Assembly: GCA_051382335.1 (NCBI GenBank)
Contig: JBBCAX010000013.1
Coordinates: 1 to 12,343 of the forward strand
Source: Deltaproteobacteria bacterium TL4
GTDB lineage: Bacteria; SAR324; NAC60-12
Length of the DNA stretch: 12,343 nucleotides
Reading direction: 5' to 3'
Shown: in pieces, positions 172 through 12,343 of the stretch
How the letters are laid out: each line of letters starts with the position of its first letter
Position numbering within the stretch: position 1 is the first letter of the stretch
Notes under the pieces: generated by a model
The model's input: the letters and a program-made list of their open reading frames with translations, nothing else
The model's database searches: none
What the model was told of the DNA's origin: nothing
Translations under genes and position numbers: made by a program

Positions 172-1731
172 TTACTCCTGATCTCCCGTGACCGCCTTCA
201 CATCCGCCAATAACTCCCCAAACTTGCCATAGTTGACCTTCACCCCATCATCCAGATCGAGGGTGATGCGTTGGTCGGCATAGTGGCGGAGAAGATCATC
301 AAATTTTCCGAGTTCCCCTTGCTTTTTGAGGAGAACATCCAACTCTTTTTGATGCTCTTTGCGGGTGGAGGTGGAGGAGGTTTTGTCGATTTCATCCCGT
401 AGATATTGCTCCCGTGCTGTGAACTTGCCTTGCAATGGAGTGACGTATTCCGTTCTCATGCGGGAGAGGGTCGCTTCATTGTAACGATGCAGATAGACCA
501 GACATTCAAAGGCCCGTTGTTTGCCACTGGAAAACAACCAGTAGATCGGACGTTTTTTGTAGCGTTTGAGGTGATCCTTGAAGAAACTGGTACTGATATA
601 CCGACGGATGGCCGCCTTGGGGGATTCGCCACGTTTGGGAGAAAGGTTGTCTGCTATGAATTTGAGGTTTTGCTCCAATAAAGATTCCTTGTTTTTGTGT
701 GTTCTTGTGTGTTCTTGGCTAAAATCCTCCCCCCAAGCCTTCTCCACAAACTCCACAAAGCGGGTGGTGACATCATCCCAGAAGCCCCAATCCATATCCG
801 TGATCGGAACAATCCCGTCATCATCGGCCTTGAAGGTCTGGTAAAGAGAATGATCAAACCCCTGATTGCCGCTATGGGCATAAACCAATCCGGGTTGTTT
901 GCCGCTACGTAGGGCGGCCCTACCGTTTATCACACCATTGTGGCCGCCATCAAAGACGTGGTTCAATGCGTCATCCAGATTATAACGTCCCATCATGCAG
1001 CCCAGGGCATAACTGATCAGTTCCTGAACCGTATCCTCCCGGAACCGGGTCCAGCCTGCCTCATCGGTTAGATTGCCTCCGTAGCGATACTTCGGATTGA
1101 CCGTCAGGGTGATCTGCTCCAGCGGCACCTCAGGGGTCAGTTCGTCCTGCAACCCGTAAGCGTCAATGAACAACCGGTTGTTTTCCTCCTCCAGCCGTTG
1201 CATTTCGGTGATGTTGGCCTGACTCTGCTGTTGCCAGTTGAGGAAGGATTGTTCCAGGGTTGGGGATTTTGTGTCGGATTGAAGTAATGGAAAGGTCTGG
1301 AAATCCCAGGAGGTTTCGAAGGAGTCCCAATCTTTCTCTGTTTTAAGAACACAACCTTCAACAACTGTTGATAATTCATTCATCGTCTTTTCGTCAGTAA
1401 TTTTTATTGGAAGTTTTCTTAGATCACCAACTTGAAAACTCAAACTTGGGTTGATAATTTTGCTGAGTTCGTCAATGAACTTACTATTTAAAATTGCTAA
1501 AAAATAATAAAAATATCTATCTTCCTTTAGATGAAAAACAGGACCTTTCATATCTGCAATTTGCCCTTCATAAAAACGCATGGAAATCCTAGTTGATGTA
1601 ATATCGCTATACCCGATTCCCTTTTTATACCAATATTTTTCTGAGAGTAAGTTGGATGTTTTATTATTTGAATAATAATTCCTTGCATTAATAGACCAAT
1701 CTACAACAAGATATCGGTGTTTCCAAACCAT
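172..1731 (-). CDS. pglX: BREX-1 adenine methyltransferase PglX, C-terminal fragment (continues the 1701..3959 ORF across a frameshift)
   Basis: Typical PglX C-terminal motifs: DWDSFETSWDF, EEENNRLFIDAYGLQDELTPEVP, LISYALGCMMGRY, HLKRYKKRPIYWLFSSGK, LVYLHRY, LDLDDGVKVNYGKFGELLA. The ORF-track start is probably not real because it overlaps the end of the upstream fragment in the -1 frame. Confidence 0.93.
   Translation of the reverse strand: MVWKHRYLVVDWSINARNYYSNNKTSNLLSEKYWYKKGIGYSDITSTRISMRFYEGQIADMKGPVFHLKEDRYFYYFLAILNSKFIDELSKIINPSLSFQVGDLRKLPIKITDEKTMNELSTVVEGCVLKTEKDWDSFETSWDFQTFPLLQSDTKSPTLEQSFLNWQQQSQANITEMQRLEEENNRLFIDAYGLQDELTPEVPLEQITLTVNPKYRYGGNLTDEAGWTRFREDTVQELISYALGCMMGRYNLDDALNHVFDGGHNGVINGRAALRSGKQPGLVYAHSGNQGFDHSLYQTFKADDDGIVPITDMDWGFWDDVTTRFVEFVEKAWGEDFSQEHTRTHKNKESLLEQNLKFIADNLSPKRGESPKAAIRRYISTSFFKDHLKRYKKRPIYWLFSSGKQRAFECLVYLHRYNEATLSRMRTEYVTPLQGKFTAREQYLRDEIDKTSSTSTRKEHQKELDVLLKKQGELGKFDDLLRHYADQRITLDLDDGVKVNYGKFGELLADVKAVTGDQE
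689..722. repeat. Single arm of the 10-nt-unit (CAAGAACACA) palindromic element, in frame inside pglX
   Basis: ttgtttttgtgtgttcttgtgtgttcttggctaa matches the intergenic arm at 9617..9650 at 32 of 34 positions. It is translated within FSQEHTRTHKNK. Confidence 0.9.
901..923. repeat. Short GTAG...CTAC hairpin (REP-like remnant) inside an apparent pglX insertion
   Basis: GTAGGG-cgg-CCCTAC at 909..923, overlapping a second imperfect palindrome GCCGCTAC/GTAG(GG)CGGC. It lies in the segment DALNHVFDGGHNGVINGRAALRSGK, between RYNLD and PGLVYAH. Confidence 0.45.
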
Positions 1732-3959
1732 TTCCGAAAGGGGCCTCCTTTAGAGTAAAGTACCCACTTTTTATTAGTTCCAGAGTTATTACTCGATACT
1801 TCCCAACGAAAACGGACAAACTTTTCGTTATCAGCAGTTTTATGCAAGGCAACAATTTCAATAAAACGACCAAGGGAGGGATTGTTAACAAACGAATTCC
1901 TTACCCGATCACTCACCCAATAGGCGATGGGGGAGCCTGGAATCTTTTTGAAATCGTCGGAGGAAGCGGTGTAGCGATAGCCACAATCAGGATTTTGGAT
2001 GGCTTCTTTTAACTTGATGGGCTGAGACTCGGCTGACCCTAAATACCCTAAATCAAAGTAATCACCTTTGAGGTTTTCAATTCCATTTCTGAGAGTAAAC
2101 GTAACCAATGGGACAATAGCCGATTCAAAGAAACTTGTGTATGATGGCTTCACAAGGCTGGAAAGCGTTTTACTTGAAAAAATGTAACTTCTGAGTTTTT
2201 CGTAAGATGAAATAAACATCCATGTAAATGGAGTCACCATGCCTAAAAAGCCTGACTTTTTAGACAGTCTAGGAAGGTGTTCCATAAACATTGCGTATGT
2301 ATCTGATTTGCTACCTGGATAATTATCTTGAGCAAACTTCTTCAACTCCGCATTCATTCCCTTTCCGCCCATGTAGGGGGGATTGGCAATGACGCAATCG
2401 TATTTTCGAGCAAGGATGGAGGCTTGTCGCAAAAGCGGCTTTAAGATTTCGATGGCATGATGCTGTTGTAAATGACCTTGAGCGTCACCTTGTTCCAGAA
2501 GAGCGTCAAGGGACGGTAATTGCGATGAAAGTTCGGAAGGAATGGAAATCAGGGAACCAAAGATTTTGGCATTTTCAAAGAGATTTATCAACTGAATCAC
2601 CTGATTGGCGTCTTTGTTTTTTGAAATCAAATCAGGCATATCAGGATAAAGCGAGTCAACAATGTTTTCAGGATCAATATTCGCTGTGCTTTGGATAGCC
2701 ATGACATTTAAATGAACCAGAGAACCCTCCTGTAGAATCCTGCGATTGTCCTCTCTGGCTTTCATCAGCAAGGCAAAGCCCGCCATTTGAGCAGCCCGTT
2801 CATCAATGTCCAATCCATAGAGATTCTTTTCCAGAATGAGTTGCGGGATGTCACGAAGGCGATAGCCCCGTTCCAGATAGATTTCCTTGAGCAAATCGTA
2901 GGCTTCCACGAGAATATGTCCTGAACCACAGGCGGGGTCAAGAATCGTCAATTCTTCAGGATTTAGAGAGTCAGGAGTGATTTTCGCAAGCTGTTGTTTG
3001 ACTTCTTCGGATTGTTCTGCGGGTTCAATGTAGAATTCCATTTTATTTAAACGCAAAGGCGCAAGGTCGCTAAGGTCGCTAAGATTATTTTTATTATTAA
3101 TTTCCTTTGCGCCCTTTGCGTCTTTGCGACTTTGCGTTGAATTTGAAACCCGTTCTCCACGAAGCGATGAATTAGGATAGGTTGCCAGCCACAGTCGTCC
3201 CAGACTGTTCTGCACCATGTATTTTACAATCCAGTTTGGCGTGAACAATTGTGTAGCCGCAGGAATATCTTCACTCTTGACCACCTTGCCAATGACCTCA
3301 TCTTTCTTTTCTGAGATATAGAACTGATAGAGCCAACCGATGATTTCCACATTCTGCCAATCCGATTCCTCAATTTCATTGACCAGTTTACGGAGCAGAG
3401 AATCGGTATGGAGCAGATTATCAGGCAGGAGCAATTCGGTTTCGTCATTGATCTTTTCAAACAGAAACGGCAAGGCATGATGGAGTGCGTTGCATTGCCC
3501 CAGTAATAGACTTCTGTAAAGTTCGGCATCCCGATTACCATCAAGTTTCATGGCAATGATGTCATCCTTTGAAATTCCAGGCAAATCGACATTCTGAGCT
3601 TCTTCCAGAATCTGGGGGTGGGTTTTACCTTCGGGATGACTCAAAACTCGAAAACCATGAGCCAGAAAATCATGCAATTCCATGTACCGTATCGCCACAA
3701 AACGATTAAACCAAGTGTAGGCTACGGATTCCATCGCTGGAACAAAGCCATTATTTTTGATTCGTTCTTCAAGTTTTATTCGTTGCTCTGCCACTCGTTT
3801 GGGGAAAGTTTTATCCCCAATGATGACCGTATTCCCCTGAATCGTAACAGGTTCGATGCGGTTTTTAGAGATACCAAAAGCGTTAGCCCGTTCTGTGACC
3901 GCTTGAATGAAGTCCCTTCTGGCGATGGTAGCATAGGCTTTCAGTTTATTTTTGTTCAT
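1701..3959 (-). CDS. pglX: BREX-1 adenine methyltransferase PglX, N-terminal/catalytic fragment
   Basis: Starts MNKNKLKAYA (ATG at 3959 with AAGGA just upstream; the ORF-track start at 4013 is likely too long). Contains AYTWFNRFVAIRYME, IPAATQLFTPNWIVKYMVQNSLG, SAM-binding motif I DPACGSGHIL, catalytic motif IV NPPY and FKKIPGSPIAYW. Ends prematurely just after KGGPFRKWFGN. Confidence 0.95.
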   Translation of the reverse strand: MNKNKLKAYATIARRDFIQAVTERANAFGISKNRIEPVTIQGNTVIIGDKTFPKRVAEQRIKLEERIKNNGFVPAMESVAYTWFNRFVAIRYMELHDFLAHGFRVLSHPEGKTHPQILEEAQNVDLPGISKDDIIAMKLDGNRDAELYRSLLLGQCNALHHALPFLFEKINDETELLLPDNLLHTDSLLRKLVNEIEESDWQNVEIIGWLYQFYISEKKDEVIGKVVKSEDIPAATQLFTPNWIVKYMVQNSLGRLWLATYPNSSLRGERVSNSTQSRKDAKGAKEINNKNNLSDLSDLAPLRLNKMEFYIEPAEQSEEVKQQLAKITPDSLNPEELTILDPACGSGHILVEAYDLLKEIYLERGYRLRDIPQLILEKNLYGLDIDERAAQMAGFALLMKAREDNRRILQEGSLVHLNVMAIQSTANIDPENIVDSLYPDMPDLISKNKDANQVIQLINLFENAKIFGSLISIPSELSSQLPSLDALLEQGDAQGHLQQHHAIEILKPLLRQASILARKYDCVIANPPYMGGKGMNAELKKFAQDNYPGSKSDTYAMFMEHLPRLSKKSGFLGMVTPFTWMFISSYEKLRSYIFSSKTLSSLVKPSYTSFFESAIVPLVTFTLRNGIENLKGDYFDLGYLGSAESQPIKLKEAIQNPDCGYRYTASSDDFKKIPGSPIAYWVSDRVRNSFVNNPSLGRFIEIVALHKTADNEKFVRFRWEVSSNNSGTNKKWVLYSKGGPFRKWFGNTDILL
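3046..3141. repeat. Complete tandem-unit palindromic element (CGCAAAG family), in frame inside pglX
   Basis: Left arm tttaaACGCAAAGG-CGCAAGGT-CGCTAAGGT-CGCTAAG, then an AT-rich spacer, then right arm CTTTGCGCC-CTTTGCGT-CTTTGCGA-CTTTGCGTTgaa. It shares its start (taacgcaaaggcgca-like) with the element at 10277..10376. Confidence 0.9.
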
Positions 3960-4146
3960 ATTTCCTTTAAAATTGCATTTTATATCTTGATATAGATTGT
4001 TATCTTGATCCATGTATAATAGTCGGGTACATATCCATTAAAAAGTGCCTAAAATTTGAAGTGTCTGAAGTAAATGATTTTGAAAGGGGCTTCATGATAA
4101 TATTGGGTAAAAATGATTATTAATTAATATCGAGTTCCAGAATACC

Positions 4147-4932
4147 ATGATACTTAACCTCCCTCACTGTAAAAGACGAACTTTTAAAAAACATTTTTTA
4201 ATAGGGGTTTATTGTGAAGTTGAATATCAGGCAATGGCTAATACCATTATACTGGAAAAAGAAGATACACTGAGAGACAAACTCGTAGATTTTGGATTTC
4301 ACGATTCAAAAAAAGTGGTTCACAATCAATTTTTCTTTCAAGGAAATCATTCAGTACCTCAGGTCATTAATATTCAACAAAACGCAAATCCTGTTGGGAT
4401 TGCTTTTGTCAGTTTAGAACCTAAACGTGAATTACAAATCACCTCAGACCGTGTTGTATTTTCAGATTATAGTTACCAGGGTTTTGATGATTTCGAAAGA
4501 AGACTAAAAGGATACTTTAAGATTATTGAAAAGGAACTTGGAAAGCTTTCTCCCATCAAAGTTGGATTTCGTAAAATAAATTCCATTATTGTCGAGCCTG
4601 TAACCTCTTATTCTGACGCTTGTTCGATTTTTAATCCATCCTTGTTTGGAACATTACGGAGCGGTATTGCGGGGAAAGATGCGTTGAAACTGATAGAAGA
4701 GTCGATGGTACTGGAACTGGGTCAGGACATCTGCTTGATCAGAAATCAATTTAAACAACTGGATAAAGCCGACAGATACCAAGCTGTCCTGGATTTTGAC
4801 CTGATTCGAAAAGAACCTGGTAATATAAAGAATGTGATGGAAAATATACTTCCCAGCTTTAATGCCAGGCATTTCGATCTTTTTATGTGGTCAATCACAG
4901 ATACGATGATTAAACTGATGGAGGAAGAATGA
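4147..4932 (+). CDS. TIGR04255-like uncharacterised protein (261 aa), first gene of the inserted operon
   Basis: The N-terminal F..hfL..V.CEV.Y, central Y.GFDDF, KVGFRKINSI (cf. RIGLRYINRI) and C-terminal VLDFD...LFMWSIT fit the pattern I associate with TIGR04255. The stop overlaps the next start (ATGA). Confidence 0.75.
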   Translation: MILNLPHCKRRTFKKHFLIGVYCEVEYQAMANTIILEKEDTLRDKLVDFGFHDSKKVVHNQFFFQGNHSVPQVINIQQNANPVGIAFVSLEPKRELQITSDRVVFSDYSYQGFDDFERRLKGYFKIIEKELGKLSPIKVGFRKINSIIVEPVTSYSDACSIFNPSLFGTLRSGIAGKDALKLIEESMVLELGQDICLIRNQFKQLDKADRYQAVLDFDLIRKEPGNIKNVMENILPSFNARHFDLFMWSITDTMIKLMEEE

Positions 4933-5276
4933 TGAGAAAATCAAGTAACGATGCGAGTTCCCCACTTTCCTACTCTTTGCATCCACAAGTAAAATACAAT
5001 CCTGAAAAAAAGACATTATCTCCAGTGAATCAAAGAATTATATTTATGAGTTACTTACCTGATCACTCAAATTATATACTTCTTTTGAAAGGAACTCATA
5101 CTGTTACAGAAACAAGTGAACCTGCTATTTATTGCAATACAGGATCAACAACATATATTCAAGAAACATGGTCTCATATCCCTAATCTTGCTTCATATTC
5201 GGAACTCATAGAGGATTATGATGTATCAGAGGTTGAAGAACAGCAAATGCAAGCTGCCAAAAACTATGGCTGGTAA
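4929..5276 (+). CDS. Hypothetical protein (115 aa), S/T/P-rich with acidic C-terminus; possible antitoxin/regulator
   Basis: ATGA overlap with the upstream stop, GAGGA RBS-like sequence upstream, and a 14-nt gap to the next gene. No recognisable domain. Confidence 0.7.
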   Translation: MMRKSSNDASSPLSYSLHPQVKYNPEKKTLSPVNQRIIFMSYLPDHSNYILLLKGTHTVTETSEPAIYCNTGSTTYIQETWSHIPNLASYSELIEDYDVSEVEEQQMQAAKNYGW

Positions 5277-5290
5277 GTAAGAGTATATTA

Positions 5291-5824
5291 ATGATGAGTT
5301 CTCCATATTACACTTCAATCAATACTAATCATCGTTGGCAGGGAGATATTTACAAATCCGAAGATTTTGGTTCTTCGGTTCCCTCTTCAAAGATTCCCCT
5401 TTGGATGCTTGTTAATCGTACTTGTCATTTAGTCGAAAGTCCCTCTCGTTCTGTTAAAATTACCCACCTAGTATTTTGTATAGTAATTACGCTCAGAGAT
5501 TTTATTGAAGCCTCTGGGAGTCAAAAAAACTTAAAAAATCAAATTTCTAATATTGTGAAAGGTAAAACAGAGAATTTGATGTTCTTACCTGTTGATGCCC
5601 AATATGGAGTTCAGGAACCTTTGGTTGCGGACTTCAATATGATTTATTCTTTTGACTTAACAGTATGTCCCACAGCAGAAAAAAAGTTAACCCAACTTAC
5701 CTCTCCATTTGCGGAACATCTATTTCAGCGGTTTGCACGTTGGTTTTATACTGTAGGATTCGATGATACTGAACTGAGCGGTGATGATTATATTCAAAAT
5801 CTAGTGCAATTAGTTAAAACCTGA
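5291..5824 (+). CDS. Hypothetical protein (177 aa) with QGDI...LVNRTCHL motif; possible PemK/MazF-fold toxin
   Basis: Intact ORF and third gene of a tightly packed operon. WQGDIY...LWMLVNRTCHL...LVFCIVI parallels the MazF layout RGDIY...PVLVVS.D...VIVAPIT. The fold assignment is inference. Confidence 0.7.
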   Translation: MMSSPYYTSINTNHRWQGDIYKSEDFGSSVPSSKIPLWMLVNRTCHLVESPSRSVKITHLVFCIVITLRDFIEASGSQKNLKNQISNIVKGKTENLMFLPVDAQYGVQEPLVADFNMIYSFDLTVCPTAEKKLTQLTSPFAEHLFQRFARWFYTVGFDDTELSGDDYIQNLVQLVKT

Positions 5825-5996
5825 TGTTGCTTGTGCAAATTTTGGGGTAGGACACAAAACAAGGTTCAAACTGAAATTCAAGTATTCAGAACCAAAAATT
5901 CATCAGTCAGAATGCCATTACCACTAACAAAATCCTTTCGAGATTTGATCGTATGGTAAAAAGCACATCATCTGGTTTTATGGGTTTCTTTCTAAT

Positions 5997-7667
5997 CTAT
6001 TTAATCCAAACCCGTTCTTTATTGGAAATCGCCTTTTCCAATTCTTGCCTGAGTATTATTAAAAAATCATCAATGTCCTGCTCGGTTTCCAAAATTATTT
6101 TAGGAACCAGTTGAGAAAGATAAATGTTTATAGGAGGCTTTACAGGGTCATTAGGATTCTGTTCAAGCTCAAACAGAATGTCATCCAACTTTTCCTGCGC
6201 AGAATTCTTGGCATAATGAATGTCTGGAATACCCACTTCACTTTGTATTTGTTTCTTAATATCCTGGAGTGGTTTTAGCAAACGGTTACTTAATATTCCG
6301 TCTGCTTTAGCTTCATCCAGTTTGGTTTTAATCTGTGCCATCATCTGGTCCAGGACGGCTTCCACTTCCTGCCGTTTAGTTTGAATCAAATGTTCATTGA
6401 TGGGAGCGACCGTTGCGATCAAGTCATCCGCTTCTTTGATCAGAGTGTATGGGTGAAGGGCCTTGAGGATTTCTTCCATGCGTTGCATGGCTTTGAACGC
6501 CTGAGGATTTTCCTGCAAATCCTTCTGATTCAAACTAAAGTGCTGGTGAGCCTGAATCAATCGTTCCCAGGTGGTTTTTTGATTTTTATAAAAGCCTCTG
6601 AGATCATGCAAATCTTCGGAGAAGTCCTCCAAATCCTTTTTACTTTTGAGAAAGGCTCCAAGGAACTGGTAGCTATCCTGATGGGACAACAAGGGAGGTA
6701 AGGTTTTCAAAGCAGAGGCGACAATTGTTCCTCCAGGGTATTTCCCCGTTTGGGTCAAAGGCTTGATCTCCTCTAAATCCGATTTCCATTGAGTCAAATG
6801 GTGTTTAAGGAAATCAAACAAATCCTGTTCAGCGTCTGGCCCGATTTGCCCAAATAAATGTTGTCCGAGCTTCCGTGCTTTTTCCAAAGAATCCTTATCA
6901 AGGATACGACGCTTGTGCAGGGATACCAATTTCCATTTGGCGGTTTTACAGAAAAACTCTTGAGCCTCTTCCAGGGTTAAGGGGGAAGTTCCCTGCCTTA
7001 AGTTGATGGAATGATTAGAGGCAAGCTTAGCCACTAAAATCACGATTTCCCACTCAGGCCATCCAAACGGGCGACCTGAAAAATGTTCAATGGCTTCGCT
7101 CAAGAGTAAGCGTTGATTTTGGTCGTTCTTCAGTTGGATATAGCGTTGGACTTCATCCATAGCGTAGTTGGCCGCATCTTCTTGAGCCATTTCAATTTGG
7201 GTGACATCGCTGGTGCGGAGGAGAGCCTTGATTTCTTCTTGTGGATTGGGGTGAAACGTTTTGAGGTAGTTTAGCTTGGAATAAAGATTCTGAAGTAAAT
7301 ATTTGAGGGTTTCGTCAACACAGGCTTGAGCATTGGCGGATTTGCTATCCAGCCCTTTTCCCATCGCATAGTATTCCGCCTCAAGGAGCAGCGTTTGGAC
7401 CGCGTCTATTAACCTTTTTTGACGATCCCTGTTTTCTTCCTGCCGATCCCGTAAAATCCGTTGAAGGGTTGAGGGCGCAGAGGAATCGCTTTTGGTCCGA
7501 ATGTATTTATCGGTTTGCAGCCAGGTTCTCAGTTCCCTCGCAAACGCCACAGGGTTGTCCAGCTTGACCACCGCACGGCCATTGTCTTGAATACTGCGGG
7601 TAATACATTTTTCCTGGGAATACCACTCATAGTCATCGGAAAAAGGTGTGATGATTTCCAGCACCAA
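5997..7667 (-). CDS. brxC: BREX P-loop ATPase BrxC, C-terminal fragment (frame is BrxC-like from about 7715)
   Basis: ELRTWLQTDKYIR, FSGRPFGWPEWE, TGKYPG, and the C-terminus LETEQDIDDFL..LRQELEKAI...ERVWIK. The same frame extends upstream as ARLCDGHPWKGKLEQDLVLEIITP, continuing the N-terminal fragment. Confidence 0.9.
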   Translation of the reverse strand: MVLEIITPFSDDYEWYSQEKCITRSIQDNGRAVVKLDNPVAFARELRTWLQTDKYIRTKSDSSAPSTLQRILRDRQEENRDRQKRLIDAVQTLLLEAEYYAMGKGLDSKSANAQACVDETLKYLLQNLYSKLNYLKTFHPNPQEEIKALLRTSDVTQIEMAQEDAANYAMDEVQRYIQLKNDQNQRLLLSEAIEHFSGRPFGWPEWEIVILVAKLASNHSINLRQGTSPLTLEEAQEFFCKTAKWKLVSLHKRRILDKDSLEKARKLGQHLFGQIGPDAEQDLFDFLKHHLTQWKSDLEEIKPLTQTGKYPGGTIVASALKTLPPLLSHQDSYQFLGAFLKSKKDLEDFSEDLHDLRGFYKNQKTTWERLIQAHQHFSLNQKDLQENPQAFKAMQRMEEILKALHPYTLIKEADDLIATVAPINEHLIQTKRQEVEAVLDQMMAQIKTKLDEAKADGILSNRLLKPLQDIKKQIQSEVGIPDIHYAKNSAQEKLDDILFELEQNPNDPVKPPINIYLSQLVPKIILETEQDIDDFLIILRQELEKAISNKERVWIK

Positions 7668-9526
7668 ATCCTGTTCCAGCTTTCCTTTCCACGGATGTCC
7701 GTCACAAAGACGGGCAAAGGATAATCCGTTTTGTTGACGGGATAACGGTATTTATGGTTCCCTTTCAGCACCTCTTCAAAAATCAAACGGCTGATTTCCT
7801 GAACCTCTTCATTTCCGTCCAGACTGAGCATTTTAATTTCTCGGGTCACATCCTGCTCTTCATTGGTTAAAAAATAATAAAGAGCGCCGCTGCGAGAAAT
7901 CAGCGTTTCTTTCTCCAGCCTTTGCAGACTTTCCTCGATTTGCCTTCGTAAAACCAGCCGATCCGCATCGACCTGATCAATACAAAGCGTGATCAAATTG
8001 TCGATGTGGGGCTTTAAAATATCAACGTAGCGAATCAAAAACAACACTCTGAGCAACTGGAGATCAAACGGCGCTAAAGGTCGCTCCGAGGCTTGATTGA
8101 TGGTACGGCTGACCGCAGTGTCCAGAAATCCTTCAATCGCAGAATAAAAGCGATATAAAGGAACGAGTGTGCCGACAGGTTGATTGCCGATTTCCTGAGC
8201 CGCCAATTGAAACGCATCCAGCATGGAACGTTCCCCTCGACTGAGGTGTTTGCCTGTGGCTCCCGCCTTACGGATGGACTCAAAAACTTTTTGAATCAAC
8301 TGGAATTGATAGGGAACGAAAGGGTAGTTTGCTACAAAGTTATCAGAATCAGCATAATTTTTAAGCGTGGCTCCTGTGTTTTGAAAACTGAGTTGATGTT
8401 TGAGAATATCCCCTTTCTCCGCATAAAGACGTCTTAAGGCCTTCTCGGCATCTGATGTTTTGGTCAGAAGCCTTTTCTGGATGACTTCATCGGTATTGAA
8501 ACTGGAAAGAGATAAGCGTGTGGTGAACCTTCCCTGAATTTTAGAAAAGTCCTGTTCTTTTGCTTTTTTGAATTCTCCAAGAATGGTATCAATGTCTTCC
8601 TGAGACGTGACCATGACCCAGGCACGACCTCCACAGGTTGTTCCAAGATTTTCAGTGATGGTTTGCAGGTTTAGCATCAACGGACTGTCATCCCCGATGA
8701 ATTGCCCCACCTCATCCACTAAAAACAAAATCCGATGATTGGAACCTTTGCGATCCAGGTAGGATTTCACTTGTTTGGCAAAATTCTCAATAGTCAGACT
8801 GTATTGTTCTTCCGCCTTATTAAACCAGTTTTGAGCATCGTTTTCAGAAATATCCAAGGCTTTGGCTAACGCTCCCACCACCTGAGATTCCTTGAATAAA
8901 TGAGCATCCTTCTCCTCTTCCCAGGACGAGCCATCCAAATCGTTAAACGCCTGATGAAACGCCTCTAACTTTCCTTTTTCGCTCAAGTGATTTTCCATTT
9001 GAGCAATATGGGGATAATCTCCGCTAAAGCCCTGATTTTCGTTAAACACTCGCAAAAACACATTCAGAATAGCGTTTCTGCCTTCTTTATGGTCGGCTTT
9101 GGTGTCAATATTAAACAGGATGACTTCCGTGTCTTTGGAAACCGCACGTTGAATATCACCTAAGAACAAGGGGTCATCTATTTTATCATTGAAGAATTCC
9201 AAGGCATTTTTTTGGATTCCTGATTCTGGATGAGGAACCTGTCTATTTTCCAGAAGATACGATAATATTTTGATAAAATGGGACTTCCCTGAACCAAAGA
9301 AGCCTGAAATCCAGACTCCAATTTGTCCACTGACGGAGGGATCATGAGGGTGGTCAACCGATTTCAGATAGACTTGAAAGAGCTTTTGAAAATGCTTCAG
9401 CAACTCTTTTGTAATGACATATTCGTCCAGTTCCTGCCACACCACCGCCTGATCCTGTTGTTCCGCTTTGACGACTCCGTTGATGGATCGGAACAGGTTT
9501 TTGGCAAAAATATCTTTAATCAGCAT
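7529..9526 (-). CDS. brxC: BREX P-loop ATPase BrxC, N-terminal fragment
   Basis: IFAKNLFRSINGVVKAEQ, ELDEYVIT, Walker A GVWISGFFGSGKSHFIK, Walker B LFLVDEVGQFIG, VTSQEDID, DFSKIQGRF, YPFVPYQF, GERSMLDAFQ. Strong RBS AGGGGAG. The sequence after about 7716 (LPVFVTDIRG...) is out-of-frame tail. Confidence 0.95.
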   Translation of the reverse strand: MLIKDIFAKNLFRSINGVVKAEQQDQAVVWQELDEYVITKELLKHFQKLFQVYLKSVDHPHDPSVSGQIGVWISGFFGSGKSHFIKILSYLLENRQVPHPESGIQKNALEFFNDKIDDPLFLGDIQRAVSKDTEVILFNIDTKADHKEGRNAILNVFLRVFNENQGFSGDYPHIAQMENHLSEKGKLEAFHQAFNDLDGSSWEEEKDAHLFKESQVVGALAKALDISENDAQNWFNKAEEQYSLTIENFAKQVKSYLDRKGSNHRILFLVDEVGQFIGDDSPLMLNLQTITENLGTTCGGRAWVMVTSQEDIDTILGEFKKAKEQDFSKIQGRFTTRLSLSSFNTDEVIQKRLLTKTSDAEKALRRLYAEKGDILKHQLSFQNTGATLKNYADSDNFVANYPFVPYQFQLIQKVFESIRKAGATGKHLSRGERSMLDAFQLAAQEIGNQPVGTLVPLYRFYSAIEGFLDTAVSRTINQASERPLAPFDLQLLRVLFLIRYVDILKPHIDNLITLCIDQVDADRLVLRRQIEESLQRLEKETLISRSGALYYFLTNEEQDVTREIKMLSLDGNEEVQEISRLIFEEVLKGNHKYRYPVNKTDYPLPVFVTDIRGKESWNRIWCWKSSHLFPMTMSGIPRKNVLPAVFKTMAVRWSSWTTLWRLRGN

Positions 9527-9569
9527 AAACTCCCCTTTGAGTGCAAAATAAATTTTTAAAGCCTAAAAA

Positions 9570-9650
9570 TTTTGCCAAGAACACACAAGAACACACAATA
9601 AAATTTTTAAAAAAATTTGTTTTTGTCTTTTCTTGTGTGTTCTTGGCTAA
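9570..9650. repeat. Tandem-unit palindromic element (10-nt CAAGAACACA units) between brxB and brxC
   Basis: GCCAAGAACACACAAGAACACACAA (9574..9598) is inverted as TTGTcTtTTCTTGTGTGTTCTTGGC (ending 9647), around an A/T-rich spacer. Confidence 0.9.
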
Positions 9651-9676
9651 TTTACCAAAATAGAGATAGGACAAAA

Positions 9677-10276: not shown

Positions 10277-10376
10277 TTTTAACGCAAAGGCGCAGAGAGC
10301 GCAGAGGGACGCAGAGGAAAAAATTTCATAAAACTTCTCTGCGATTCTCTGCGGTCTCTGCGTCTCTGCGTTTAAA
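10277..10376. repeat. Tandem-unit palindromic element (CGCAGAG units) between brxA and brxB
   Basis: ttttaACGCAAAGG-CGCAGAGAG-CGCAGAGGGA-CGCAGAG, a 20-nt AT-rich spacer, then CTCTGCGATT-CTCTGCGGT-CTCTGCGT-CTCTGCGTttaaa. Its right end contains the brxA stop codon. Confidence 0.92.
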
Positions 10377-11505: not shown

Positions 11506-11736
11506 ATGCTTAAACAAACGATCCAATACTCATCGCCATTAGATGCTCTGCTTGCTGTGACAAAAAGGCTAAGCATCTACGAAAGCGAGCAGAAAATCAC
11601 ATCAGAAGAGTTCTATGACCAGTATTGCAGAGGAAAAATGCCTGATGATACGGTCTATGTCGAATGGGCTAATGATTTTCGCCATTACCTGGAGCTTCAT
11701 CAGAAACTGGAAAAAAGGCTCCAAAATGTTGCATGA
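11506..11736 (+). CDS. TumA-like antitoxin (76 aa)
   Basis: Small helical protein with L..YE....ITSEEFY..Y..G.MPDD..YVEW. AGGAG RBS upstream. Overlaps the downstream DUF6516-like gene by 11 nt. Confidence 0.75.
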   Translation: MLKQTIQYSSPLDALLAVTKRLSIYESEQKITSEEFYDQYCRGKMPDDTVYVEWANDFRHYLELHQKLEKRLQNVA

Positions 11737-12106
11737 AGTATTAGCGTCCTACCTGGAAGAAGTGGAACGAGCAATACTCCAATGTCGTGATGTCTATGTG
11801 GAAAAATATGCGGAGGAGGTATTAACATCGGAAAGAGTGAATCTGCGGATTCGTATGCGTTTCGATAAAGGGCCGTTGCTAGAAATGAGCGAAGCTGTTG
11901 TGGTAGAGGCGAATAACCTTGTCCATCTCGACTACCGCTACCACTGCCAAGACGAGCAACATCATCTCATTTTCCGGTATGACAGCACTCCACATTTTCC
12001 CGATCTGACAAGTTTCCCACACCACAAGCACTTATCGAATGATGTGGTTGCCTGTGAAAAGCCATCGATCGAGAAGGTGTTGGAAGAAATAGTCGAACAG
12101 CAATGA
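11726..12106 (+). CDS. DUF6516 / TumE-like toxin (126 aa)
   Basis: YRYHCQD....LIFRYDSTPHFPDLTSFPHHKH matches the DUF6516 signature (Y.Y......RYDN.PH....TFPHHKH). Start assigned to the ATG at 11726 (MLHEVL). Confidence 0.85.
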   Translation: MLHEVLASYLEEVERAILQCRDVYVEKYAEEVLTSERVNLRIRMRFDKGPLLEMSEAVVVEANNLVHLDYRYHCQDEQHHLIFRYDSTPHFPDLTSFPHHKHLSNDVVACEKPSIEKVLEEIVEQQ

Positions 12107-12145
12107 CCAGAATAATTGACTGACTTGGTACAATTTGAAAAATTT

Positions 12146-12164
12146 CCACCTGTGCAGGTGGTTT
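12146..12164 (+). terminator. Possible intrinsic terminator after the TA operon
   Basis: Perfect hairpin CCACCTG-TG-CAGGTGG followed by TTT, 40 nt after the toxin stop. The U-tract is short. Confidence 0.4.
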
Positions 12165-12169
12165 GAAAA

Positions 12170-12284
12170 TTAACCACGAAAAACACGAAAAACATGAAAT
12201 AAATGATTTTTTAATAAATGAATTCCTCCGTGAAACCCTATTTTGCAGGTTTTATTTCGTGTTTTTAGTGTTTTTCGTGGTTAA
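12170..12284. repeat. Tandem-unit palindromic element (9-nt CACGAAAAA units)
   Basis: The 34-bp arms ttaaccacgaaaaacacgaaaaacatgaaataaa (12170..12203) and tttatttcgtgtttttagtgtttttcgtggttaa (12251..12284) are inverted with 2 mismatches around a 47-nt spacer. Both ends are TTAA. Confidence 0.92.
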
Positions 12285-12318
12285 AAAAAGGGCTACCGGT
12301 CTAAAGTGGGACAAAAAC

Positions 12319-12343
12319 GTAGGTTGGGTAGAGCGTAGCGAAA
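12319..12343 (+). repeat. GTAG-family REP element, truncated by the window end
   Basis: GTAGGTTGGGTAGAGCGTAGCGAAA fits the GTAGGTTGGG..GAGCG.AGCGAAACCCAAC REP pattern; the closing arm would lie outside the window. Confidence 0.6.

Follow-up and report, generated by a model that had tools for sequence, protein, structure and literature searches.

The three genes at positions 4147-5824 of the DNA studied here are one member of a wide family of gene sets, in which a gene of the TIGR04255 family is followed by a variable middle gene and an exchangeable, toxin-like effector gene. TIGR04255 is the constant part of this layout, which is our main result and was absent from an earlier note on the same DNA, whose reading of the trio was partly supported. 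The trio is patchily distributed and foreign to its genome, as reflected by the data given below. It is probably a self-contained, horizontally acquired three-part defence module of the toxin-antitoxin type that landed in the slot between brxC and pglX of a BREX locus.

The window, i.e. the whole stretch of 12,343 nt that was analysed, is the complete contig C13 of a 6.59 Mb genome (445 contigs, 43.4% GC). Its features around the trio are as follows.

172..4013, minus strand: pglX, split over two frames near 1700-1730 (profile positions over two ORFs)
3960..4146, no strand assigned: presumed promoter region, divergent and AT-rich, from the probable start of pglX to gene 1 (intergenic)
4147..4932, plus strand: gene 1, TIGR04255-family protein of 261 aa (NCBIfam match and model)
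4929..5276, plus strand: gene 2, 115 aa, no family assigned (BLASTP relatives and alignment)
5291..5824, plus strand: gene 3, 177 aa, MazF/PemK/CcdB fold (model and structural matches)
5997..9526, minus strand: brxC, split over two frames near 7703-7721 (comparison with an intact BrxC)

As the earlier note had described, the trio (1.7 kb) consists of three intact, coupled ORFs antisense to BREX; genes 1 and 2 share an ATGA overlap at 4929-4932, and a spacer of 14 nt (5277-5290) separates genes 2 and 3. The GC content of the trio was 0.356 overall and 0.36, 0.345 and 0.36 for genes 1, 2 and 3, respectively, compared with 0.44 for brxC and 0.434 for the genome, which agrees with the higher AT content noted before, and only 0.6% of 3703 equal-sized genome windows were as AT-rich as the trio. 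In comparisons of genes 1-3 with their relatives, the codon-position pattern 2 > 1 > 3 was found in 9/9 pairs, reflecting constraint at the protein level. A promoter scan of 3960..4146 gave no sigma-70 consensus on the plus strand, a result below chance level and uninformative.

The genes brxA, brxB, brxC and pglX of the type I BREX locus are all located on the minus strand. The interval between brxC and pglX is a site for accessory genes, as previously claimed; BrxU is placed there according to PMC8565348. Both flanking genes carry one frame change each, while the trio is intact, again as stated earlier. The intact 1180-aa BrxC of a related genome (G068) fits frame -1 of the window down to position 7703 and frame -3 from 7721; this one close BrxC among the relatives ends near the end of its contig. 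In pglX, profile positions 1-754 and 752-1210 lie in separate ORFs; the first ORF runs from 4013, with a probable true start at 3959 (the profile match begins at residue 24). Because none of 14 other tested genes, gene 3 among them, was frameshifted according to tblastn, the evidence leans weakly towards real decay of brxC and pglX rather than assembly errors. The trio proteins showed no homology to BrxA, BrxB, BrxC, PglX, PglZ or BrxL in Pfam, NCBIfam and PADLOC profile searches.

Gene 1 matched the NCBIfam family TIGR04255 with 79.2 bits (cut-off 30; E 4e-22; profile positions 2-251 of 252), in accordance with its earlier description as TIGR04255-like. The gene is single-copy in the genome, and its ESM Atlas matches were TIGR04255 only. 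The model, obtained from 49 sequences, had a pLDDT of 95.0 and forms a two-repeat alpha/beta saddle. Structural matches included TBP (Z 7.8), McsB and other guanido kinases (Z 7.5-8.0; 185 residues aligned to the McsB kinase domain at Z 8.0) and RepDE (Z 6.9), and one half of the protein matched the N-domain of spermine synthase (Z 8.2); the viral structure library returned TBP-like and unnamed rows only. Since Z values of 7-8 are weak, at a level that the tool calls a possibly common arrangement, 'TBP-like' denotes an architecture here and not an ancestry. When the 49 family members were compared with Pfam, no family was matched by more than one member and no TBP-type match was obtained. The residues Y110, G140, R142, D216, D218 and F246 are conserved. 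For gene 1, which the earlier note read as a sensor or chaperone, a chaperone of the SecB type was rejected at the profile level: comparison with 26 SecB sequences by hhalign gave a probability of 0.25%, and PF02556 matched 0/49 members. SecB was also absent from the best 50 rows of either structural list, a comparison that half-domain likeness to SecB could escape.

Gene 3 had no Pfam or NCBIfam match at E<=1, including PF02452, and none in PADLOC. Its model (pLDDT 95.2) contains an SH3-like barrel and a C-terminal helix that superpose on MazF and CcdB. Beyond the MazF fold, the model has an insertion and one additional helix at the C-terminus. The best structural matches were S. aureus MazF (4mzm; Z 11.1, rmsd 3.3, 112 of 115 residues aligned) and CcdB (2vub; Z 10.2), which tie within 1 Z, and Kid was matched as well; ToxN, CptN and AbiQ followed with Z 5.5-7.5. 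All 15 top matches were toxins of the MazF/CcdB/Kid/ToxN type, the next unrelated row had Z 3.2, and Foldseek matched a MazF-type fold with E 8e-4. Thus, the predicted structure has the MazF/PemK/CcdB fold, and the PemK/MazF likeness noticed earlier in the N-terminal pattern is borne out at the level of the model. By sequence, 18 close proteins were retrieved, and a wider search yielded 362 representatives with E<=0.001, of which 150 were listed; the nearest ESM Atlas clusters are all unnamed, and no relatives were found in the viral contigs or plasmids searched.

In an alignment of 108 gene-3 family sequences, C45 was invariant (108/108) and Q17, G18, D19, P139, E142 and G156 were conserved in 90-102 of the 108. 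Canonical PemK/MazF toxins have an invariant Arg in the KxRP motif (25/25 sequences) and a PxT motif, and both have a catalytic role. In the matching strands of the gene-3 alignment (compared at the level of strands) no Arg or Thr was conserved at 50%, and the gene-3 and PemK/MazF profiles did not align (profile-profile probability 0.6%). Therefore, the MazF fold stands, whereas RNase chemistry is only predicted, and membership of gene 3 in PF02452 was rejected on the same profile results. From its modelled fold, gene 3 is likely to be a toxic effector.

Database versions of gene 3 are probably too long in a number of loci, as gene callers extend the gene upstream by about 30 codons through the overlapping frame of gene 2's conserved tail (L004-L014, L017, L018); the resulting proteins of 205-222 aa carry a probably false N-terminus. 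Among 41 longer gene-3 relatives scanned, a receiver domain was detected in 19 by PF00072 and in one by PF21194 (E<=0.01). Three such fusions of a receiver domain to the gene-3 MazF-like domain (L023:1486-2658, L024:877-1968 and L025:1486-2520) are located after a HATPase gene and before Vsr or Dcm, which indicates that the gene-3 clade also serves as an output domain elsewhere, in settings associated with restriction. These HATPase - REC-MazF-like - Vsr/Dcm operons are candidates for a separate two-component conflict system.

Gene 2 belongs to no family and gave no AbrB or RHH Pfam match. Two regions are conserved, an N-terminal KxKYxP motif and an acidic C-terminal tail, D-V-x-E-V-E-x-x-(M/F/Y)-x-A-x-x-x-G-W. 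In the alignment of 15 sequences, the terminal W115 was present in all 15 and E103 in 14, and the last 35 residues carried a net charge of -2 to -11. The view of gene 2 as a small protein with an acidic tail hence extends to its relatives, in which this tail likewise ends with Trp; we take it to resemble the tail of E. coli MazE. Judged from its sequence, gene 2 may serve as antitoxin or adaptor.

For the distribution of the trio, the gene-3 alignment was used to retrieve 17 loci, from 2 genomes and 15 metagenome contigs. Gene order and strand were kept in 14 of these, i.e. in all those with upstream DNA, and the remaining three are cut off by a contig start within gene 2 or gene 3. That the trio is conserved elsewhere, as anticipated, thus applies to close relatives. 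BLASTP relatives of all three window proteins were present in the same order and on the same strand in 12 of the 17 loci, two more (L005, L018) were found by profiles built partly from these loci, and gene 2 had BLASTP relatives in 14. L003 and L009 appear to be identical, and gene 1 is split in L014. An unpublished genome, G088 (L002), is counted in this total and in alignments A4-A6, and the unpublished L047 (G126) and L056 (G349) are among the 42 loci of the survey described below and in A6/A7; dropping all three shifts the counts by one or two.

The trio is located just downstream of yicC in L003, L011 and L013, with gmk-rpoZ following in L009, which suggests that the site after yicC is an insertion hotspot. 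In L002 the trio adjoins tRNA-Arg near a phage capsid gene, and L015 runs on into YhcG and Schlafen-domain genes. A single-query search found gene 3 in 0/40 relatives, while the gene-3 profile matched 5/87 further genomes from the phylum; in two of these, TIGR04255 lies upstream. In one further locus (L022:1483-3157), a gene-3 relative is accompanied by a middle gene that is acidic and W-ended; the first gene of this set, with 260 aa, gives no match to the TIGR04255-type profile, and the set is possibly a very distant member of the family.

The position of the trio between brxC and pglX raises the question of a dedicated BREX accessory that acts as a guard and fires upon inhibition or loss of BREX. 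Backup effectors are often embedded in BREX loci, as described in PMC8565348 and PMC12839542, and a BrxC/PglY match is located near one TIGR04255 locus, L098. However, this was the only BREX match among 38 survey loci, and no BREX gene was present in the ORF lists of the 17 closest loci, which are mainly on short contigs (the four long ones lie by yicC or tRNA-Arg). Moreover, the trio is intact beside two broken genes, brxC and pglX. A guard function is accordingly very improbable, and the special link to BREX proposed in the earlier note was not recovered.

We studied the wider family in a survey of TIGR04255 that gave 60 match rows, from which 42 loci, chosen regardless of gene 3, were examined. 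Of 401 genomes sampled from the class to which G089 belongs, 49 contained TIGR04255, compared with 0/14 control genomes. In 17/42 loci the second gene downstream, on the same strand, was a gene-3 relative (E<1e-7 in five loci, weak matches of 1e-5 to 6e-3 in the others), compared with no match in 1566 control ORFs. In another 14 loci the third gene belonged to a family with conserved R, S and H (R-S-H), counted with a profile built from the same 14 proteins. The others comprised two PIN genes, one HNH gene, one PrlF-YhaV pair and one DUF7689 gene, and six third genes were unassigned, truncated or at a contig end.

The R-S-H proteins of 115-200 aa (L041, L043, L050, L055-L057, L092-L099; alignment A7) had no Pfam or PDB sequence match; from the motif, we presume a likeness to ADP-ribosyltransferase/RES proteins. 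Their middle genes often contain an LPxxWDxY motif, and three match PDC-M32A weakly. Across the survey, middle genes gave HTH profile matches in 11/30 loci, mostly below the cut-off, and a weak match to the PrlF antitoxin in one; in other TIGR04255 loci they encode short acidic proteins. The middle genes of two subfamilies that were tested did not align.

A constant gene 1 in front of such different effectors bears on what this protein does. It could be an enzyme or a nucleic-acid-binding effector with R142, D216 and D218 as active site, as in guanido kinases/McsB or Rep_trans, that modifies the toxin or makes or cleaves a signal, with C45 of gene 3 being regulatory or catalytic. D216 and D218 are each found in 47/49 family members and R/K142 in 48/49, the McsB kinase domain and RepDE are among the top structural rows, and the receiver fusions of gene-3 relatives next to HATPase, Vsr and Dcm show that the fold accepts enzymatic control. 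On the other hand, the Z values of these matches tie with TBP and are near background, and the Pfam comparison named no shared family. Furthermore, since unrelated effectors are served through a variable middle gene, one type of gene 1 is more easily explained by binding than by a single chemistry. We thus consider an enzymatic gene 1 quite unlikely.

Instead, binding would be the role of gene 1 in the defence module favoured here. Gene 3 would form a MazF-type dimer and act as a toxin, most likely a translation-halting RNase and possibly a poison of the CcdB type; gene 2 would neutralise it through its acidic Trp-ended tail. Gene 1 may bind or stabilise gene 2 and may at the same time be the sensor: a phage molecule, either nucleic acid or protein, on the saddle would free the toxin, and freed gene 3 toxin would lead to abortive infection or growth arrest. 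The module would then work like a toxin-antitoxin-chaperone (TAC) system with a non-SecB third protein, and BREX would not be needed.

A close comparison is with TAC systems such as CmdTAC/PD-T4-9 (PMC11618068) and the HigB-HigA-SecB-like system of M. tuberculosis. Like these, the trio has three genes with a constant protein, and the trio family shows the three-gene operon with a variable toxin (RNase- and ADP-ribosyltransferase-like). In both, the middle protein ends in a conserved C-terminal tail, and in relatives of the trio it often has HTH matches. In contrast, the constant protein of the trio is a predicted 250-aa TBP-like saddle without detectable SecB similarity, the gene order is constant-middle-toxin, and the trio has no PADLOC match.

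With MazEF, PemIK and CcdAB the trio shares the fold of gene 3 and a small upstream gene with an acidic tail. It differs in that gene 3 has 177 aa compared with about 110 and lacks PF02452 and the conserved canonical Arg/PxT, in the missing AbrB/RHH match of gene 2 and in the addition of an obligatory-looking gene 1. Type III toxin-antitoxin systems (ToxIN, CptIN, AbiQ) have an enlarged MazF fold of a length similar to gene 3, but the Z values are lower than to MazF and the partners in the trio are proteins. A type III antitoxin was rejected, as region 3900-6100 contains no tandem repeat array, only scattered short chance repeats.

In type II Gabija (Liu-DS1), a divergent, split MazF-like GajC is needed for defence according to PMC13069673; TIGR04255 was not found in its searched text. 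GajC and gene 3 both have a divergent MazF-like fold with a helical insertion, whereas the partner of GajC in that source is the UvrD helicase GajB, of which the trio has no counterpart. Many effectors are embedded in BREX loci according to PMC12839542, and its searched main text contains no MazF, PemK, TBP or TIGR term. The trio shares the brxC-pglX slot with BrxU and such accessories (PMC8565348, PMC12839542) and differs from them by its antisense strand, its three genes and its unrelated proteins. TBP domains are used by the TOTE/TALON conflict systems, as stated in PMC12458937, and the trio resembles them as a candidate conflict system with a bacterial protein whose model is TBP-like; the trio lacks a TPR, OB/cold-shock or helicase gene, and gene 1 lacks a TBP-type Pfam match.

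In PADLOC-DB 2.0.0, a library without post-2023 systems, the three trio proteins matched no family at E<=1 and 0/30 TIGR04255 relatives matched at E<=0.001, in good agreement with the earlier statement that the trio corresponds to no named system. Altogether, Pfam, PADLOC and PDB sequence searches named nothing in the trio beyond TIGR04255. TIGR04255 was found in no main text of the literature searched, subscription papers and bioRxiv supplements being outside its scope, and the trio is undescribed there.

To assess whether defence genes are found nearby, the ORFs up to about 4.5 kb away from 38 TIGR04255 loci (258/270 listed ORFs; L102, L103 and one L101 ORF were omitted) were compared by PADLOC at 1e-15 with 144/177 ORFs from 16/20 control regions, taken from the same genomes. 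Genes of the RM, Hma or BrxC kind were located near 9/38 TIGR04255 loci compared with 0/16 control regions (p 0.045, the category being chosen after seeing the matches). Defence-specific matches were found in 15/38 compared with 3/16 (p 0.21) and any PADLOC match in 21/38 compared with 7/16 (p 0.55). Where genomes were GC-rich, the simple ORF picker sometimes took antisense shadow frames; in addition, several loci come from one and the same genome, and few loci were sampled. The enrichment in defence islands is accordingly modest and suggestive only, and the broader counts are not significant. Many TIGR04255 loci are located among housekeeping genes (yicC, gmk, FKBP). In L078:162-8659, a trio of TIGR04255, HTH and MazF-fold genes directly follows hmaB-hmaC on the same strand.

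Signs of mobility were also observed. Gene 1 of the window had no match in the plasmids searched, while a distant TIGR04255 query matched 12 plasmid and two 'phage' records. The plasmid-borne putative trios led by TIGR04255 adjoin a tape-measure gene or transposon genes, or have a DUF927 primase region on one side and a type I RM operon on the other. Overall, copies are located beside phage-like genes, a transposon and tRNA genes.

These observations bear on a selfish addiction or stress module, i.e. a three-gene toxin-antitoxin set that stabilises its mobile DNA, or answers general stress, without an anti-phage role and whose insertion into BREX was tolerated. The weak enrichment on broad counts, the 12 plasmid records, the adjoining transposon genes and tRNAs and an intact trio beside broken BREX genes, as expected if it were addictive, would all fit. 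Conversely, the trio shares the slot of BrxU, the copy in L078 directly follows hmaC, and RM genes lie beside other loci. Exchange of the effector among RNase, DNase and ADP-ribosyltransferase-like classes is, moreover, typical of immune modules. DefensePredictor scores for TIGR04255 proteins point in the same direction: in PMC13092281, Table S4 gives at least eight of them as 'predicted novel defense gene', and TIGR04255 is absent from its tables of cloned and screened systems. A purely selfish module is therefore unlikely, and a defence module remains our preferred reading.

Beyond this locus, and more tentatively than for the trio itself, TIGR04255 may be an unrecognised immune platform, in which a TBP-like phage-sensing saddle steers interchangeable effectors via a fast-evolving adaptor or antitoxin. 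If so, three-part control of a toxin would have been solved a second time, independently of SecB, and the platform would be present in about one eighth of the genomes sampled from one large class. Its effectors would comprise PIN, HNH and YhaV proteins, a new clade of the MazF fold whose Cys is invariant, and the R-S-H proteins as a further clade, unnamed and ADP-ribosyltransferase-like. TIGR04255 is common yet without an assigned function; as constant regulator of swappable toxins it would define a testable family of defence cassettes with two unnamed effector clades, and these cassettes probe whether a non-SecB protein can fill the sensor role known from TAC systems.

A few other elements were observed in the window and its genome. 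A TumA-TumE toxin-antitoxin pair (PADLOC PDC-M44A/B; 11506-12106), in which tumE probably starts near 11726, is located divergently from and upstream of brxA. A palindromic repeat at 3042-3141, with about 17 genomic look-alikes, lies in frame inside pglX and adds a low-complexity peptide of about 35 residues. Interspersed repeats are present at 1-110, 9567-9653, 10277-10363 and 12137-12343 (about 63, 8, 10 and 83 genomic look-alikes, respectively), and two of them break contig ends. The same genome (G000) has two further BREX-like loci with long open frames on contigs C437, C43 and C191 (L058, L060, L062), and an 890-aa PglZ-like gene on C191 may be the missing pglZ of the BREX locus in the window.
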